Both the position numbers and the translations under genes were made by a program. From a virus: 64,000 nucleotides of DNA. Within the stretch, counting starts at the first letter, position 1. Every line of letters begins with the position of its first letter. This document shows positions 3,192-34,702 of the stretch, in pieces. The DNA lies in the IMG/VR virus record IMGVR_UViG_3300022602_000039, positions 32,001 to 96,000 of that record; one strand, given 5' to 3'. Below the pieces are notes generated by a model. That model was given only the letters and a program-made list of their open reading frames with translations. It was not told the DNA's origin and ran no database searches.

Positions 3192-5654
3192 TTATTTTTT
3201 AAGAATTATAAGAACCTTATCCTTTAGACCAATTTTATATTTGTTCTTTAAATTACCCTTTAAAAGTTCTTCAGCTAGGAAATCTTCAATCTCGTGTTCA
3301 ACTAATCGACGAACACCACGAGCTCCATATTGTTTATCATATTTGTTATCAACAAGATATTCAAGAACATCATCATTAATAGTAAGGGTTAATTTATGAT
3401 TTTGCTCAATACGATCAAGAATTTTTTTAGCTTCTAAAGCAATAACAGATTTAATACTATCTTTATCTAATTTATTGAATATTATAAGCCCATCTAGGCG
3501 GTTTAAAAGTTCAGGTTTAAAATGGCTCTTTGCCTGTTCAAGTACTTTCTCTCGGGCACTCGTTGAGACTTCAGGTAGTTTATGCGCGTTAAATCCCATA
3601 GCAACATCCTTTGTACTCGTCATTACTTCGGCTCCAAGATTAGAAGTCATAATAATAATAGTATGTCTGAAGTCTACTTTTCTACCTTCACCATCGGTGA
3701 GTGTTCCATCTTCAAGAACCTGAAGAAGAAAATGGAGTACATCCGGATGTGCTTTTTCAATTTCATCCAATAATACAACACTGTAGGGATTACGGCGAAT
3801 CTTTTCAGTCAATTGACCGCCTTCTCCATAACCTATATATCCCGGAGGTGCACCAATAAGCCTAGAGAGTGCAAATTTTTCCATATATTCTGACATATCT
3901 ATCTTTACTAACGCATCCTTATTCTTATAAACAATGTCAGCAATAGTCTGTGCCAAATACGTCTTGCCAACACCAGTTGGACCAAAGAAAATGAATGATC
4001 CAGTGGGACGCTTTGGATCTTTAAGGTCTAATCTACCTTTCTTTAATATTCGTGATACCTCTTTTATGGCTTCATCTTGACCGATAATAGTAGAAGATAA
4101 AGTTGATTCTAAACGAAGCAATTCTTCTTTGCCTGTTTCACGAAGTTCAGTCAACGGAATACCCGTAATAGTTGAAAGAGTTGTTAATACATCCTCTCGT
4201 TCAATAGTAATATCGGAGCGTTCTTTTTTATCTAAAAATTCTTTCTTTATTTGATCACGTTTCTTAACTAAGTTTTTTTCTTTGTCTCGCATCTTAGCTG
4301 CTTTCTCAAAGTCCTGTTTAGCCACCAATCTCTCCTTTTCAAGTGCTAATTCTTTAATTTGTTCGTTAAGTTTAAGAACTTCATCAGAAGTAGAGAGTGC
4401 ATTGATTTTAGCTCTTGATCCTGTTTCATCCATAATATCAATGGCTTTATCAGGTAGATATCTAGATGGCAGATAACGATCGGAATACTTTACCATATCT
4501 ACAATTACATTATTTGGAATAATTACCCCGTGGTGAGTCTCATAATGTGGACGGATACCTTTAAGAATTTCAATAGCTTGATCTACTGTTGGGGGGTTAA
4601 CCGTTATGGATTGAAAGCGACGTTCTAAGGCATTGTCCTTTTCTATATATTTTCTGTATTCATTAAACGTTGTAGCACCAATGCATTGAACTTCTCCACG
4701 ACTTAGAGCAGGTTTAAGAATATTAGAAGCATCCATTGTGCCCTCAGCACTACCTGCACCTACCATTGTATGTAATTCATCAATAAAGAGAATTATATTT
4801 CTTTTTTCTTTTACCTCCTGCATTACTGCTTTAATCCGTTCTTCAAATTGACCACGAAACTTAGTACCAGCAACCATTAGAGTAAGATCAAGAGAAAGAA
4901 CTCGTTTGTTAGCAATAATAGAAGGTACATCTCCATCAACAATTTTTTGTGCTAAACCTTCAACAATTGCAGTTTTTCCGACTCCTGCTTCACCAATGAG
5001 AACAGGATTATTTTTTGTTCGACGACAAAGAATCTGAATCATTCGCTCAATTTCTTTTTCACGGCCTACAACAGGATCAATTTTATTTTCTTTAGCGAGT
5101 TTAGTAATGTCGCGTGCAAAGACATCTAAAGCTGTTTGCTTCCCGTCAGTTCTATTTCCACCACCTGCACCTACTGATTGAAATTTATCTTCATCCTCGT
5201 CTTCATCCTCATCAAAAGGAAGAACTGATGGGTTAAGTTCTTTAACAATTTCTTGACGAACAATATTAAGATCAACATTGAGCTTGTGAAGCACAGAAGC
5301 TGCCATACCATCCTTCTCTTTAATAAGACCGAGAAGAAGATGTTCGGTTCCAATATAAGTATGACCAAGTGCTTTAGCCTCGCGACCAGCTAATACAAGA
5401 ACTTTGTTAGCACGAGGGGAATAAATTAAATTTGGCACTACCTTTTTGCTATTGGCAGCATTCCTCTCTATAGTTTCAAATATATCATTTAGATTATTAA
5501 TAATCTTCTTAAGAACATTAACAGCAAGACCCTGATTTAAACGGAGAATACCAAGTAAAATGTGCTCTGTACCTACGTATCCGCTCTGTAAACGTTCAGC
5601 TTCCTTCTTTGCTAAAGCTAAGGCCTGTTGTGCTCTTGGTGTTAAGTTATTCAC
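3192..5654 (-). CDS. clpC: ATP-dependent Clp protease ATP-binding subunit ClpC
   Basis: Two Clp_N repeats (GTEHILLG), two AAA+ modules ([16 protein letters not shown]), KFRG and GYIG pore loops, short UVR-type M-domain ([11 protein letters not shown]), MGF ClpP-binding loop. Confidence 0.95.
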
Positions 5655-30669: not shown

Positions 30670-31767
30670 TTATGCTTCGAGATTAGCAGGAGCAACATCA
30701 CGGAACGGATCCGGTGCAACCGCTGCAAAATCAGGTCCCTTGAAGAAGAGATCAGACGCTAGGCGATTGAGCTCCATACGGAAGGCAATATTCTCATCCG
30801 TAACATGATGGGTAGCGACATTAGTCAAGTTATTGAACAAGTCATACGCATTAACGTTTGAGTTCGCTGTTGACTGCCAGCGAGTACCCTTCTTAGCAAC
30901 ATCAATACCAATAGTCTTATAACGACCCTTGATCTCGTTATCGTTAAACATCTCTACGGCAAGCTCCTTATCAAGATCCATAACAAGCTTACGTGCGTTG
31001 TAGTACTCACGGATAGAAGCGTTATTATCACGTAGACGATTTGCGTTAGCTGAGACTTCTTCACGGAGAACGTCACCGGTCATAAACTTACGAACCTGGG
31101 TATCAAAGGTACGCTGACTGAAGTCTGCACTATCAATGAAGCGCTGGGCCATACGATGAACAGCGGGCATTCCGTTCGAACAAACAAGACGGAGAAGATA
31201 AGGATAGAACTGTGACTTATTCATCGAGAAGTTCATTCCAAAACCACCCTTCCACATATCACGACCATCTCCGAAAACATCAATATCGGAATCTGGATTC
31301 TTGAAGTTAATTCCAATACTAATGTTCATAGGATCGAAGTTAAAATCCCGAAGCTCGAGATTGTTCTCGTTATCCCTCAAAAAGGCCTCAGTATAACGAA
31401 GGCCTGCGGAAAGATCAATCTGACGCTCTTCCTTAATAGGACGGTCAAAGAGATTGACAATCTCATTATTGTGGTTGTTAACAATCGCAGTTACACGCTT
31501 GTTCTTCTTGATGTTCGTAAGAGCATTATGGAGTGGTGCCCACTGGGAGCTGTCATCCTTAATCTCGTTAACAAGCTGATCCTTAACTCCAAGAACTCCG
31601 AGGAGACTCTTAAGAGAATTATTAGCTAGTCGGTTATTGTTGTAGGAGAAGTTATTACCGTTCTTCTCGATGGACTCAATATCCAGAGGTGCGAGGGTGT
31701 AGCCTTGCAACGTCTGGCGAATATCATTGCTCTTGGCAACGAACTTATCTAGTGTTGTTGTACTCAT
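30670..31767 (-). CDS. DUF932/DUF945-like phage protein
   Basis: RLVCSNGM motif and NAYDLFNNLTNVATH. Confidence 0.65.
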   Translation of the reverse strand: MSTTTLDKFVAKSNDIRQTLQGYTLAPLDIESIEKNGNNFSYNNNRLANNSLKSLLGVLGVKDQLVNEIKDDSSQWAPLHNALTNIKKNKRVTAIVNNHNNEIVNLFDRPIKEERQIDLSAGLRYTEAFLRDNENNLELRDFNFDPMNISIGINFKNPDSDIDVFGDGRDMWKGGFGMNFSMNKSQFYPYLLRLVCSNGMPAVHRMAQRFIDSADFSQRTFDTQVRKFMTGDVLREEVSANANRLRDNNASIREYYNARKLVMDLDKELAVEMFNDNEIKGRYKTIGIDVAKKGTRWQSTANSNVNAYDLFNNLTNVATHHVTDENIAFRMELNRLASDLFFKGPDFAAVAPDPFRDVAPANLEA

Positions 31768-31854
31768 GACTCCTTTATATTACGGGCACTCGATTAGGAA
31801 TTCCAGAATTATTTTTAAATTCCGGAAAGTAATTTGTATTTTACTATAAAATCA

Positions 31855-31892
31855 AAGAGAAACCCCTACCACCTGATCAGGGTAGTAGGGGT
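31855..31892 (-). terminator. intrinsic terminator ending the ncRNA cluster
   Basis: ACCCCTACTACC...GGTGGTAGGGGT followed by TTCTCTT on the minus strand. Confidence 0.7.
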
Positions 31893-32211
31893 GAGTTCGA
31901 ACTCTGCTTTCCATTTCTTTATCTCTCTGCATTTTAGGGAGAGCGACTCCTTTCCGGACTTGAGACCGGCAACTGGTAGCATTACTAAAGAAATTTGTGG
32001 TTATTTTTTGAGCTTTATACTAGTATTTGTCTCAATCTTCAACGGGTCTCGGCATGGAGCCAAGCACACCGTCTAATTCCGTGTTTACTAAAGCAAGGGA
32101 TCAAAGCTGTATGTAGGTGTTTGGCTCCCCCTATGAAAATACGTCTACTAACACACCAACGGACAACTCAACGTATCTCTCCCACGAATTATTCCTACAA
32201 CGTGGGAACTT
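31893..32211 (-). ncRNA. putative large structured RNA (~320 nt), unidentified
   Basis: No credible ORF; multiple helices: TCCCACG/CGTGGGA, GATACGT/ACGTATT, GGAGCCAAACAC/GTGCTTGGCTCC, GAGACC/GGTCTC, TTTCTTTA/TAAAGAAA. Confidence 0.55.
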
Positions 32212-32217
32212 AATTTA

Positions 32218-32326
32218 TGATTACTGGCCTATCGGAGCTAGGAAGTCTATAGCGTCCATCTAAGGATACTACTACCCGCGGCTTCGGACTAGTATTGTTA
32301 CTACCGAGGACTATACGCAGTAATCA
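32218..32326 (-). ncRNA. putative structured RNA (~109 nt)
   Basis: 9-bp closing stem TGATTACTG/CAGTAATCA; GC-enriched interior. Confidence 0.55.
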
Positions 32327-32332
32327 AATTAT

Positions 32333-32445
32333 TTTGACCGGGGTGGTTAATCCATCCTGATGCACCGGTTGATAAAGGCCTTTTAGAGCAACCTAGTCGC
32401 GCGCACGTACGGTAGCTCTTTCGATCGAGCCTGCGAACGGTCAAA
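32333..32445 (-). ncRNA. putative structured RNA (~113 nt)
   Basis: 8-bp closing stem TTTGACCG/CGGTCAAA; GC-enriched interior with a GAAA motif. Confidence 0.55.
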
Positions 32446-32458
32446 TTTTAAAATGTAC

Positions 32459-32513
32459 TGTCAAAGATCAATTCTTATTCTCTTAATATATAGTCTATTC
32501 TTGGAACCGGCAA
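32459..32513 (-). promoter_or_regulatory. sigma70-like promoter plus boxA-like element
   Basis: TTGCCG-17 nt-TATATT, then TGATCTTTGACA (rrn boxA is TGCTCTTTAACA). Confidence 0.6.
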
Positions 32514-32560
32514 CTGAAATCTTCAGTTCGATTCTATATCATGCTAGATTAAATAATAAT

Positions 32561-33415
32561 ATGTTAACTCAATATGAAAAATGGCTCAAGGGCGCTGGAA
32601 AGAGTAACGCTAAAAGATATCAACAAAGATTAAACAATTACAACAATAATCCTAAATTATGTGCGTATTGCAAACATCCTTTAAGCTATGAATTGAGAAA
32701 TAACAAATACTGCGACCATACTTGTTCTGCTTCCTTTACGAATAAAAGTAGATCAGAGTCAGGATATAGTTTAAAAGGAAAAACAAAAGCATCTATTTGC
32801 ACTAAATGTAATAGTACTGTAGAAATAGGTTGTAATGCATCAGCTTTAAGAGCATTATGTACCAAATGTAAATTACAATATGTACGTAAACACTGTAAGC
32901 AATGTAAAAATATATTTTACGGTAGACCAAATAGAAAGACATGTAGTAATGAGTGTGCTAGTTTAGCAAAACGTATAGGGGCTATTAATGGAGGTAAAAA
33001 ATCTGCTGCTATACAATCTCAAATAAGAAGAAGCAAAAATGAAATATATTTTGCTGAACTTTGTAAATTACATTTTACAAATGTTTTAACAAATGAACCT
33101 TTGTTTAACGGTTGGGATGCTGATATTATATTGCCTGATTTTAAAATAGCTATAATGTGGAACGGTGCTTGGCATTATAAACAAATAACAAAAAAGCATT
33201 CTGTAGAACAGGTACAAAATAGAGACAAAATAAAAATAAAAGAAATCGAACAGGCAGGTTATACATCTTATGTAATAAAAGATCTAGGCATTGAAAATAA
33301 AAAATTTGTCATTAATCAATTTAATAAGTTTCTTAAAAATATGGCGGGAGTGGGAATTGAACCCAACGCGCTCTTTCGAGCTGATGCTTATGAGACATCC
33401 GACTTTGTCCTCTAG
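32561..33415 (+). CDS. Zn-finger + PD-(D/E)XK putative homing endonuclease
   Basis: YCDHTCSASFTN, RSKNE...WDADIILPDFKIAIMWNGAWHY; likely ATG at 32561 after TAAATA; reads antisense across most of the CAT tRNA. Confidence 0.85.
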   Translation: MLTQYEKWLKGAGKSNAKRYQQRLNNYNNNPKLCAYCKHPLSYELRNNKYCDHTCSASFTNKSRSESGYSLKGKTKASICTKCNSTVEIGCNASALRALCTKCKLQYVRKHCKQCKNIFYGRPNRKTCSNECASLAKRIGAINGGKKSAAIQSQIRRSKNEIYFAELCKLHFTNVLTNEPLFNGWDADIILPDFKIAIMWNGAWHYKQITKKHSVEQVQNRDKIKIKEIEQAGYTSYVIKDLGIENKKFVINQFNKFLKNMAGVGIEPNALFRADAYETSDFVL

Positions 33416-33426: not shown

Positions 33427-33435
33427 ATAAAAATT

Positions 33436-33560
33436 TGTAAGTTCCTTTGTCCTAAAAACTTGAAGCGTCCTTCATTATGTATTAGTTTTGTACGAACTTA
33501 CGACGAACCGGTTCCATACATACAACCTTTCGAACAGCTGTAGAGAGGGTTTTGCCGATT
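33436..33560 (-). ncRNA. putative structured RNA between tRNA-Trp and tRNA-CAT
   Basis: Stems GTAAGTTC/GAACTTAC, AAAACT/AGTTTT, TGAAG/CTTCA, TACAGCT/GGTTGTA; possible ATGTAT/ATACAT pseudoknot. Confidence 0.45.
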
Positions 33561-33568
33561 TCTGTAAT

Positions 33569-33643: not shown

Positions 33644-33665
33644 ATAAATTGTAAAAAGATCAAAT

Positions 33666-33741
33666 TGGAGCCCAGTGTCGGGCTCGAACCGACCACCTGC
33701 TGATTACAAATCAGCTGCTCTACCAAATGAGCTAACCGGGC
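33666..33741 (-). tRNA. tRNA-Thr(TGT)
   Basis: GCCCGGT/ACTGGGC TCCA; GCTGA TT TGT AA TCAGC. Confidence 0.95.
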
Positions 33742-33787: not shown

Positions 33788-34150
33788 CTATTTTTCGTAG
33801 TGTTCTTCTTTTAATTTAGCATTCCAAATCTTTGCATCTTCTATAGAGTTTGGATTAATGTTTTTATAATCACCAAGATGACCGATTAGTAAATGACAGA
33901 TAATTCCGTAGCTTGTACTCTCACACAATGTTACAAGATTGTTCGGATCGAGTTCTAATTCTGGATGAAGATGGAATGGTTTAATATGATGTACATTTAA
34001 CTGATGGGTATCACCACATACAACGCATTTTGGATTATTCTTTAAATGTTCTTTACGAACTTTTGCCCATTCGTTAGAACGCTTTGGTCCGCCATTAGGA
34101 ATTTTACCCTTAGCGACATCTAATGCATGATTTAAACGTGTGGAAGCCAT
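33788..34150 (-). CDS. HNH endonuclease
   Basis: CVVCG...VHHIKPFHLHPELELDPNNLVTLC...CHLLIGH. Confidence 0.88.
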   Translation of the reverse strand: MASTRLNHALDVAKGKIPNGGPKRSNEWAKVRKEHLKNNPKCVVCGDTHQLNVHHIKPFHLHPELELDPNNLVTLCESTSYGIICHLLIGHLGDYKNINPNSIEDAKIWNAKLKEEHYEK

Positions 34151-34255: not shown

Positions 34256-34702
34256 TGGTGGAGACGACGGGAATCGAACCCGTGTGTTTATACTGTTCTA
34301 TTTATACTTCTACACGCTTAGATAAACTTCGTACTTTCGTTGACTCCAGGTAACAAGGCGTTATCAACCTATCTATGTTTATAGTCCTACCTATGCAGAT
34401 GAAGAGTCCTGCACGACCCCTTGCACTCAGTTTTCTAAGAATCACAAGACCTTCTAAACCTATTTTTATTTCCAAAAGCTTTAATAGGATTATCTTTTGG
34501 TTCCTTAGGCAGCTAGAAGTGCTGGCTCTTCAAAGCTGGCGAGGATTTCGTCAGCGTTCTCGAGACAATACAATGCTTCCGCAAGGATGGCGTCAGAGTT
34601 ATCTTCTGCGTTTAGTTTTTTAATCAGCTTTTATAGTGGCCAACTGATTAACCACTGCGTGCCGCATAAACTTCGAGTATAAGTCGAAGCCATTACGTCC
34701 CC
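34256..34702 (-). ncRNA. ssrA: tmRNA with 34-aa tag AEDNSDAILAEALYCLENADEILASFEEPALLAA
   Basis: 5' GGGGACGTAATGGCTTCGAC; 3' ACGGGTTCGATTCCCGTCGTCTCCACCA; G3.U pair; tag ORF 34609-34505 ending LAA*. Confidence 0.95.

Follow-up and report, generated by a model that had tools for sequence, protein, structure and literature searches.

A modular structured RNA unit with a probable 3'-trimming twister ribozyme in a phage tRNA island

The window analysed here is a stretch of 64,000 nucleotides (nt), positions 32,001 to 96,000 of IMG/VR record IMGVR_UViG_3300022602_000039, and is part of the 130-kb record of an uncultured freshwater phage. It carries an island of 17 transfer RNA (tRNA) genes and one transfer-messenger RNA (tmRNA) gene, all found on the minus strand with ARAGORN and Rfam. 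Within this island, the interval 31855–32513 is a minus-strand non-coding transcription unit. It consists, in this order, of a promoter, a leader, three structured modules called hereafter A, B and C, a type-P1 twister, a small hairpin and a terminator (Table 1). A first-pass annotation, made from the letters of the sequence, had described it as a self-contained promoter-to-terminator operon of structured RNAs, divided into modules of ~113, ~109 and ~320 nt. This observation of a structured non-coding unit was confirmed: both boundaries were located exactly on the minus strand, the first two modules correspond to A (with its linker) and B, and the third is C together with the twister and the small hairpin. 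The interpretation given to it was partly supported, as detailed below.

Table 1. Positions of the unit's features, of neighbouring genes and of same-core twisters on other contigs.
Feature	Position	Strand	Description
Promoter	32485–32513	minus	-35 TTGCCG (32513–32508), 17-nt spacer, -10 TATATT (32490–32485)
Leader	32443–32478	minus	31 nt; putative 5' end at 32478/32474; nearly the same sequence in all relatives carrying it
Module A (version A1)	32336–32442	minus	107 nt, 113 with AAAUUU linker
Module B	32219–32325	minus	107 nt; invariant 8-bp closing stem GAUUACUG/CAGUAAUC
Module C	31984–32218	minus	~235 nt, conserved core; helices H1–H6; 3' tail ends at predicted cleavage site
Type-P1 twister	31913–31994	minus	P1 AUUUCUUUA/UAAAGAAAU, P2 UGC/GCA, P4 CCG/CGG with loop GUCUCAAGUC
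Small hairpin	31893–31904	minus	GAGU-UCGA-ACUC, between ribozyme and terminator
Terminator	31852–31892	minus	hairpin 31892–31862, 12-bp stem, loop CUGAUCA, T-rich tail UUUCUCUUUGA
Same-core twisters elsewhere	L030:10681–10732; L031:1264–1315; L033:2648–2698; L058:1999–2061		compact
tmRNA	34256–34702	minus	111 bits; heads the tRNA island; order same in relatives L049 and L040
HNH endonuclease ORF	33788–34150	minus	120 aa; between tRNA-Ala and tRNA-Thr; PF01844, E 4.8e-7
Module D	33428–33568	minus	~140 nt; between tRNA-Trp and tRNA-Met; conserved, non-coding
Cys-rich ORF	32453/32562–33415	plus	~285–320 aa; between tRNA-Met and the unit's promoter
365-aa ORF	30670–31767	minus	just past the terminator; GC content 0.39–0.51
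Protease homologue	3192–5654	minus	820 aa, ATP-dependent; phrog_4871, E 1e-244

No open reading frame (ORF) longer than 80 aa is present in the interval on either strand, nor in the wider segment 31768–32560, in agreement with the earlier view that these ~600 nt hold no credible ORF. A GC content above background had also been noted. It is indeed 0.39–0.45 in the interval as compared to ~0.28–0.32 over 32500–33300, whereas the opposite flank, occupied by the 365-aa ORF, is as GC-rich as the unit itself.

Relatives of the unit were gathered by a protein search with the neighbouring 365-aa ORF and by exact-motif scans of viral and metagenome contigs. All counts below are of distinct copies, after removal of duplicates and of chance pattern matches (L012, L019–L021, L041, L046 and L055). 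Module C was found in 15 copies and module A in 14, of which eight belong to the version of the window (A1) and six to a second version (A2). Module B was found in five (the window, L045, L040, L048 and L057), and is absent from the other relatives. The shared order is promoter, leader, an optional tRNA-Met, A1 or A2 or neither, an optional B, C, twister and a terminator-type hairpin. Three relatives (L052, L054 and L040) have the tRNA-Met within the unit, A is absent in L052, and L058 and L059 carry A1-C without the leader and without an adjacent twister. Relatives differ by 1-nt indels and by gain or loss of whole modules. Judged from these arrangements, A and B behave as exchangeable cassettes, using slots that tRNA-Met can also fill. 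Comparison of 31770–32560 with 50,697 deposited phage records by blastn gave no match. An exact-pattern scan of 185,579 prokaryote genomes for a module C motif gave two matches, both by chance in unrelated sequence, so that no host or prophage was identified that way.

The structure of C, obtained with RNAalifold and by manual reading, comprises six helices. It was tested on an unedited MAFFT alignment of the 15 distinct copies (alignment A3, from which L044, with 93 nt of C only, was left out) for helices H1–H5 and the pseudoknot, H6 being out of register. For the 39 pairs, 98.3% of cells were standard, and 12 pairs were changed on both sides. The covariation score was 0.331, versus 0.163 in shuffles, and none of 500 shuffles was as good; when the structure was slid along the alignment as a control, 38–51% of cells were paired and zero to five pairs changed on both sides. 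After gap-only, structure-guided register fixes in H2, H5 and H6, with H6 added, the count rose to 52 pairs, with 714 of 743 cells standard and 22 pairs changed on both sides. Covariation, which the first-pass annotation had named as a check, is therefore strong for C, and it is present for A as well.

Inspection of the loops of C revealed further pairings. A pseudoknot, PK1, joins the 3' part of the H2 loop to the conserved UAAACAC of J3/4, L058 showing a single compensated replacement there, of U-A by C-G. The loops of H1 (UGUAGG) and H3 (CCUACA) can pair with each other, and from this complementarity a kissing contact between the two is likely. In L052 the H3 partner is gone, and an inserted CUAC pairs locally with GUAG, a replacement which fits a loop-loop contact in the other copies. 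About 110 of the 585 paired cells in C are G-U or U-G (a sum from the pair table). They would read as A-C mismatches on the plus strand, and the RNA strand is therefore the minus strand. The same reading is given by the twister, the T-tailed terminator, the conserved promoter, the tRNAs and the tmRNA, since all of them are on the minus strand.

Module A1 is a four-way junction, made of a P1 stem (GACCG/CGGUC), a P2 hairpin, a long P3 with an apical GGCC loop and a P4 hairpin. Over its eight copies all 248 cells of the 31 pairs were standard, and five pairs were changed on both sides. A2 has a very different sequence, but it occupies the same place in the unit in five relatives and shares the four-way-junction architecture, with a closing stem GACUAG/CUAGUC, a long P3 and a 3' hairpin; the P2 loop of the A modules is 8–11 nt long. 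Four pairs of A2 were changed on both sides, and 89.5% of its cells were standard, a value lowered by P4 being one column out of register (three falsely unpaired pairs). Inside its closing stem, B contains a hairpin UAGUA/UACUA, a hairpin varying from 14 to 53 nt with compensating changes (AGAGC/GCUCU versus AGGGC/GCCUU), and a hairpin CCUA/UAGG with a 7-nt loop. Five sequences are too few to settle this fold, and the hairpins of B are provisional. A terminal stem of its own closes each of A and B, and A/U linkers separate all three modules, in accordance with the terminal stems and short AT linkers reported earlier.

At gathering scores, an Rfam search of the whole window detected tRNAs and tmRNA only. 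A permissive scan of 31600–32800 against all 4227 families (E<=10) gave a match to twister-P1 (RF03160, clan CL00120) and two chance-level matches, and none on the other ~480 nt. The twister-P1 match spans 31988–31919 on the minus strand (model positions 1–68), with 32.4 bits and an E value of 7.7e-5 in this 1.2-kb scan, or 2e-6 for the whole phage record. The earlier statement that no known family is recognised, and the Infernal/Rfam check proposed with it, thus came out differently along the unit: A, B and C matched nothing, whereas the 3' part contains a twister. The segment 31994–31913 is a member or variant of the twister class, with cleavage predicted between U31984 and A31983.

The segment resembles RF03160 in several respects. 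Helices P1, P2 and P4 follow in type-P1 order around the UAA internal loop that contains the cleavage site, L4 has the conserved CAAG centre, the AAA junction is present, and L4 makes the double pseudoknot with L1 and L2. These two contacts, T1 and T2 respectively, as well as the U-A cleavage site, are defined here as in PMC6154101. T1 reads CUC/GAG here and CCC/GGG in the consensus, T2 AC/GU and GC/GC respectively, so that the four departures from strongly conserved consensus positions amount to two compensated pseudoknot pairs. The score is low because these departures are pseudoknot pairs, which the Rfam model does not score. The segment differs from the family further by a vestigial P3 of a few nt, by a P5 hairpin that is present in every operon-linked copy, and by its new context, directly 3' of a conserved structured non-coding RNA in a phage tRNA island. 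Since P3 is found in 78% and P5 in ~1% of annotated twisters, according to PMC6154101, this P5-bearing and nearly P3-less form is an unusual variant.

Sixteen distinct twisters with the same L4 core were parsed: 12 located after C, one elsewhere in L058, and three in unrelated phage contigs. T1 was CUC/GAG in 14 and CUC/GGG, with a U-G pair, in two; T2 was AC/GU in all 16. P2 had its three pairs fully standard in 15, the exception being L047, where CGC gives a C-A. The 3-bp P4 was likewise standard in 15, and occurred in seven combinations (CCG/CGG, UCG/CGA, UCU/AGA, ACC/GGU, CAC/GUG, GCG/CGU and the weakened form of L040, which has an A-A). P1 is 3–9 bp long and covaries, its sequences changing while the pairing is kept, and P5 varies in sequence and length (14–42 nt) with its stem kept. 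The AAA junction and a GAGAG or GAGGG strand were retained, and the core was invariant over the 12 operon-linked copies. The cleavage dinucleotide was U-A (UAA site) in 15, and C-A (CAA) in L052.

As for the location, 13 of the 15 C copies have the twister directly after C, one of them being cut by the contig end; of the other two, one is on a contig that ends before the twister point, and the other is L058. The four same-core twisters found elsewhere (35.8–54.1 bits, E values from 3.4e-4 to 1.9e-9, all below the Rfam cut-off) lie after or between protein-coding stretches, that of L058 being followed by a structured stretch and a terminator. A twister sub-type with CUC/GAG and AC/GU therefore seems to be common in phages and to be missed at the gathering score. 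A second twister-like motif, at 32540–32495 (GCCGGUUCCAAG), was rejected, as it corresponds to the promoter's -35 region and lacks a partner for P4.

The position of the promoter and its hexamers are kept in relatives (TTGCCA or TTGTCT, then TATATT, TAGTAT or TAATAT). The terminator stem covaries (CCCUUAC.../...GUAAGGG in L052, for example), and in some relatives other hairpins are found at its place. In L049 the small hairpin gives way to GAC-UGCA-GUC, and some relatives do not keep it. The leader contains a motif, AAGAAUUGAUCUUUGACAG, at 32476–32458, which occurs as a single exact copy in the window and includes a boxA-like UUGAUCUUUGA. Its core AUUGAUCUUUGAUAG is identical in every copy having the region, despite differing promoters; over the leader as a whole, there is one A for G in L054 and there are a few base differences in L052. 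We take this leader to resemble the boxA antitermination element of the rrn operons and of phage lambda, by analogy with which it would possibly suit an untranslated, highly structured transcript. The UUGAUCUUU motif of the leader recurs at 33650–33668 on the minus strand, in the spacer between tRNA-Thr and tRNA-Trp.

Near relatives of the unit were present in four sequencing runs, one being a freshwater metatranscriptome (X1) and the others runs with no recorded library kind (X2–X4). The two X1 contigs (161 and 182 nt) have their aligned parts inside C, 74% of the compared sequence being unlike the window. Those of X2–X4 (326–387 nt) cover C and A, and skip B (127 nt, with 12 other letters instead). 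In X3 the contig end lies at 32478, 7 nt past the -10 hexamer, and in X4 at 32474, 11 nt past it; 26 and 21 loose letters follow there, respectively, and both contigs continue through A into C on the other side. We read the loose letters as a template-switch oligonucleotide's end with its three G, in reverse complement, together with a transposase adapter, as expected at the 5' end of a complementary DNA (cDNA). The X3 and X4 ends are thus suggestive of a transcript 5' end. The X1–X4 contigs stop by 31996, where nine loose letters are present in X2, and leave 32256–32337 uncovered; the uncovered parts give no evidence either way.

Three loops of the unit have self-complementary centres. In the P2 loop of A, the tetramer (UCGA, UGCA or AGCU) is self-complementary in 13 of 14 distinct copies, and the apex of A-P3 (GGCC, CGCG or GUGCAC) in 14 of 14. 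The H6 loop of C is A-rich and 18–20 nt long, with a palindrome at its centre in all 15 copies, ACUAGU in three, the window included, and UCCGGA in 12; two of its positions are changed on both sides. The motifs differ between clades yet stay self-complementary, and adjacent self-complementary bases cannot pair within one chain. These sites were noticed after the fact, and independent changes among them are few. In a cryo-electron microscopy study of OLE, ROOL and GOLLD (10.1101/2024.12.08.627333), switches from one palindrome to another are taken as evidence of symmetric intermolecular kissing loops. By analogy, and from the sequence pattern, the modules might stay joined as one multi-domain RNA that self-associates through such loops, a proposal which we hold tentatively, at somewhat below even confidence. 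The stronger form of it, in which A, B and C would be domains of one new 'ornate' phage RNA class, homo-oligomeric through three kissing loops and with a twister-made 3' end, we consider rather unlikely.

GOLLD and ROOL, to which the first-pass annotation had aptly compared the unit, are phage-encoded near tRNA islands and have covarying palindromes of symmetric kissing loops, according to 10.1101/2024.12.08.627333 and PMC5737381. GOLLD is described there as conserved in its 3' region, less so in its 5' region, and as sometimes holding a tRNA in the linker, one member being downstream of a Met-tRNA. In the present unit, similarly, C is constant at the 3' side, A and B vary at the 5' side, tRNA-Met lies inside three copies, and three loop sites are palindromic. 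The resemblance is one of organisation, not of homology: no covariance model of these families matched 31600–32800 at E<=10, and the ROOL model RF03087 gave no match in the phage record, although the control gave none either. The unit is also smaller, ~495 nt, or ~385 nt in relatives without B. Finally, it has a 3' ribozyme, a feature not mentioned for GOLLD or ROOL in the accessible parts of the same two sources, where the twister appears, in that of PMC5737381, only for its discovery.

A ribozyme placed to make the 3' end of a stable phage RNA has a parallel in the theta (minimal, hepatitis-delta-virus-like) ribozymes, which cut at the 3' ends of phage tRNAs according to PMC10879173. In contrast to the present case, these belong to another class and follow tRNAs of gut phages, not a large non-tRNA RNA; the twister is mentioned zero times in PMC10879173. 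A literature search, covering neither supplements nor most subscription journals, gave no report of a twister joined to a large phage non-coding RNA, nor of these modules. The 224 motifs of PMC5737381, listed in its supplements, may include a related motif absent from Rfam. According to a review (PMC6765202), the function of most new ribozymes is still elusive; the review also notes that they lie near phage genes.

The explanation we prefer, and regard as fairly probable, is a stable-RNA unit with a constant C, a twister maturing the 3' end, and a 5' part built from exchangeable cassettes. Transcription would start ~7 nt past the -10 hexamer, near 32478, and run through the leader, possibly a boxA-like antitermination signal, then through A and B as two accessory cloverleaf-shaped domains, the pseudoknotted C as conserved core domain, the twister and the terminator. 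Judged from sequence and fold, the twister probably trims the 3' end of the RNA. Its cut between U31984 and A31983 would leave an RNA of ~495 nt, counted from 32478, with a 2',3'-cyclic phosphate at its 3' end, and the piece carrying the ribozyme and the terminator would be discarded, so that the ribozyme would serve the non-coding RNA as its 3'-end maturase. A circular RNA, formed by ligating the cyclic-phosphate end, was set aside, as nothing predicts a 5'-OH end. In this explanation the strand, the conservation, the folding of C and of part of A, the fold features of the twister and the shuffling of modules are established, and self-cleavage, the exact ends and the role of the leader are inferred. 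Our best guess for the role is a phage RNA assembly, or a decoy, acting together with the tRNA and translation set of the phage.

Several observations weigh against this explanation. The 32.4 bits of the twister are far under the Rfam gathering cut-off of 67.2, and L058 keeps A-C with no twister adjacent to it, so the ribozyme is not obligatory. The minimum-free-energy z-score of the whole unit is -1.76 on the minus strand and -3.10 on the plus strand, and A and B alone (+0.30 and +0.31) fold no better than shuffles. Scans for promoters (9 sites, 8.2 +/- 3.2 expected) and for terminators (2, with 2.2 +/- 1.5 expected) are at chance level, so that the meaning of both sites rests on conservation and on the read evidence. 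In that evidence, the cDNA reading of the contig ends depends on how the adapter letters are read and on runs of unrecorded library kind, and the joins of A to C, being contigs, are no proof of single molecules. For C, the set of copies is shallow (three clades, mean column identity 77%), the kinship of the sequences inflates the shuffle statistics, and the 52-pair count depends on the guidance of the register fixes by the structure. L047 and L057 have a U-U within the proposed contact between the H1 and H3 loops, and L053 a non-palindromic ACGA in the A-P2 loop. Module shuffling, finally, fits separate small RNAs as well as domains of one RNA.

This last point leads to a serious, if still tentative, alternative, namely a polycistronic precursor from which host RNases (RNase E at the A/U linkers, RNase P and others) would release A, B and C separately, as with the species 1 and 2 RNAs of phage T4 (rnaC and rnaD), the twister trimming the last RNA only. 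A, B and tRNA-Met come, go and replace one another independently, the same AAAUU-type linkers flanking their slots, A and B each have their own terminal stem and a cloverleaf-like four-way shape, and the RNA-library contigs of X1 cover part of C only. Like rnaC and rnaD, which the T4 annotation gives as stable RNAs, 119 and 139 nt long, immediately behind tRNA-Arg, they would be small stable RNAs placed head to tail with tRNAs in a phage tRNA cluster. However, comparison of minimum-free-energy folds by eye revealed no likeness to rnaC or rnaD in sequence or fold. rnaC has a tRNA-like T-arm end that A and B lack, T4 has no ribozyme there, and neither ARAGORN nor the Rfam tRNA model found a tRNA in 31855–32513, both leaving A and B undetected. 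In addition, the X2–X4 contigs join A to C unbroken, which is weak evidence as contigs can merge fragments, and GOLLD is a single large RNA in spite of a variable 5' region and an embedded tRNA.

The other alternatives are less probable. One of them holds the twister-like stretch to be inactive, a decayed ribozyme or a resemblance by chance, with the RNA simply ending at the terminator; it would be in line with the sub-cut-off score, with a P2 of only 3 bp next to a U-U, with the vestigial P3, with the absence of the element from one relative and with the C-A at the site in another. We find this improbable, as the four departures from consensus are compensated pseudoknot positions, P1, P4 and P5 covary while the core is invariant in the 12 operon-linked copies, and the same core recurs with higher scores at four other places in phage contigs. 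It is very unlikely that the unit serves as an extended 5' leader regulating the downstream 365-aa ORF in cis, for instance as a riboswitch or an attenuator. The ORF does lie downstream on the same strand, and both are within ~1–1.5 kb in eight relatives, but a terminator and then a separate conserved promoter-like stretch stand in between, relatives have an insertion there, either a small ORF or other genes over more than 1 kb, A-C has another context in L058, and no riboswitch family matched. Least credible of all, in our view, is a function in small conserved peptides or on the plus strand, to which the overlapping ORFs (80 and 72 aa on the plus strand, 38 and 47 aa on the minus strand) and the lower plus-strand z-score could point. 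Among relatives, 1-nt and whole-module indels occur and stem substitutions come as compensating pairs, and the G-U cells of C would become A-C on the plus strand; conserved peptides, the outcome that the first-pass annotation had named as contrary to its view, are not borne out.

The placement of a twister cut so as to create the 3' end of a conserved structured RNA bears on the role of genome-encoded twisters. If true, 3'-end maturation of a stable non-coding RNA would be, to our knowledge, the first concrete job known for a twister of bacteria or phages. From the pattern of palindromic loops, self-association is predicted, and the unit would then be a further RNA-only assembly alongside GOLLD, ROOL and OLE, with cassette-like domains exchanged among phages in the way tRNA genes are. 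A, B and C, together with the nearby module D, add to the few large structured RNAs kept beside phage tRNAs.

Module D is found in 10 distinct relatives, with hairpins changed on both sides (GAAG-GACG-CUUC versus CAG-GACG-CUG, for example), and had no Rfam match at the gathering score. Among the neighbouring genes, the Cys-rich ORF has no Pfam or PHROG match, and its 3' end overlaps tRNA-Met on the opposite strand. It looks like an insertion, since relatives have no such gene at that place. The 365-aa ORF, whose GC content clearly exceeds the phage background, is likewise unmatched in Pfam and PHROG; the only lead, from an atlas, is to phage clusters with DUF932 in 15–16% of their members. The HNH endonuclease ORF lies within the tRNA island itself, and the ATP-dependent protease homologue was found elsewhere in the window.

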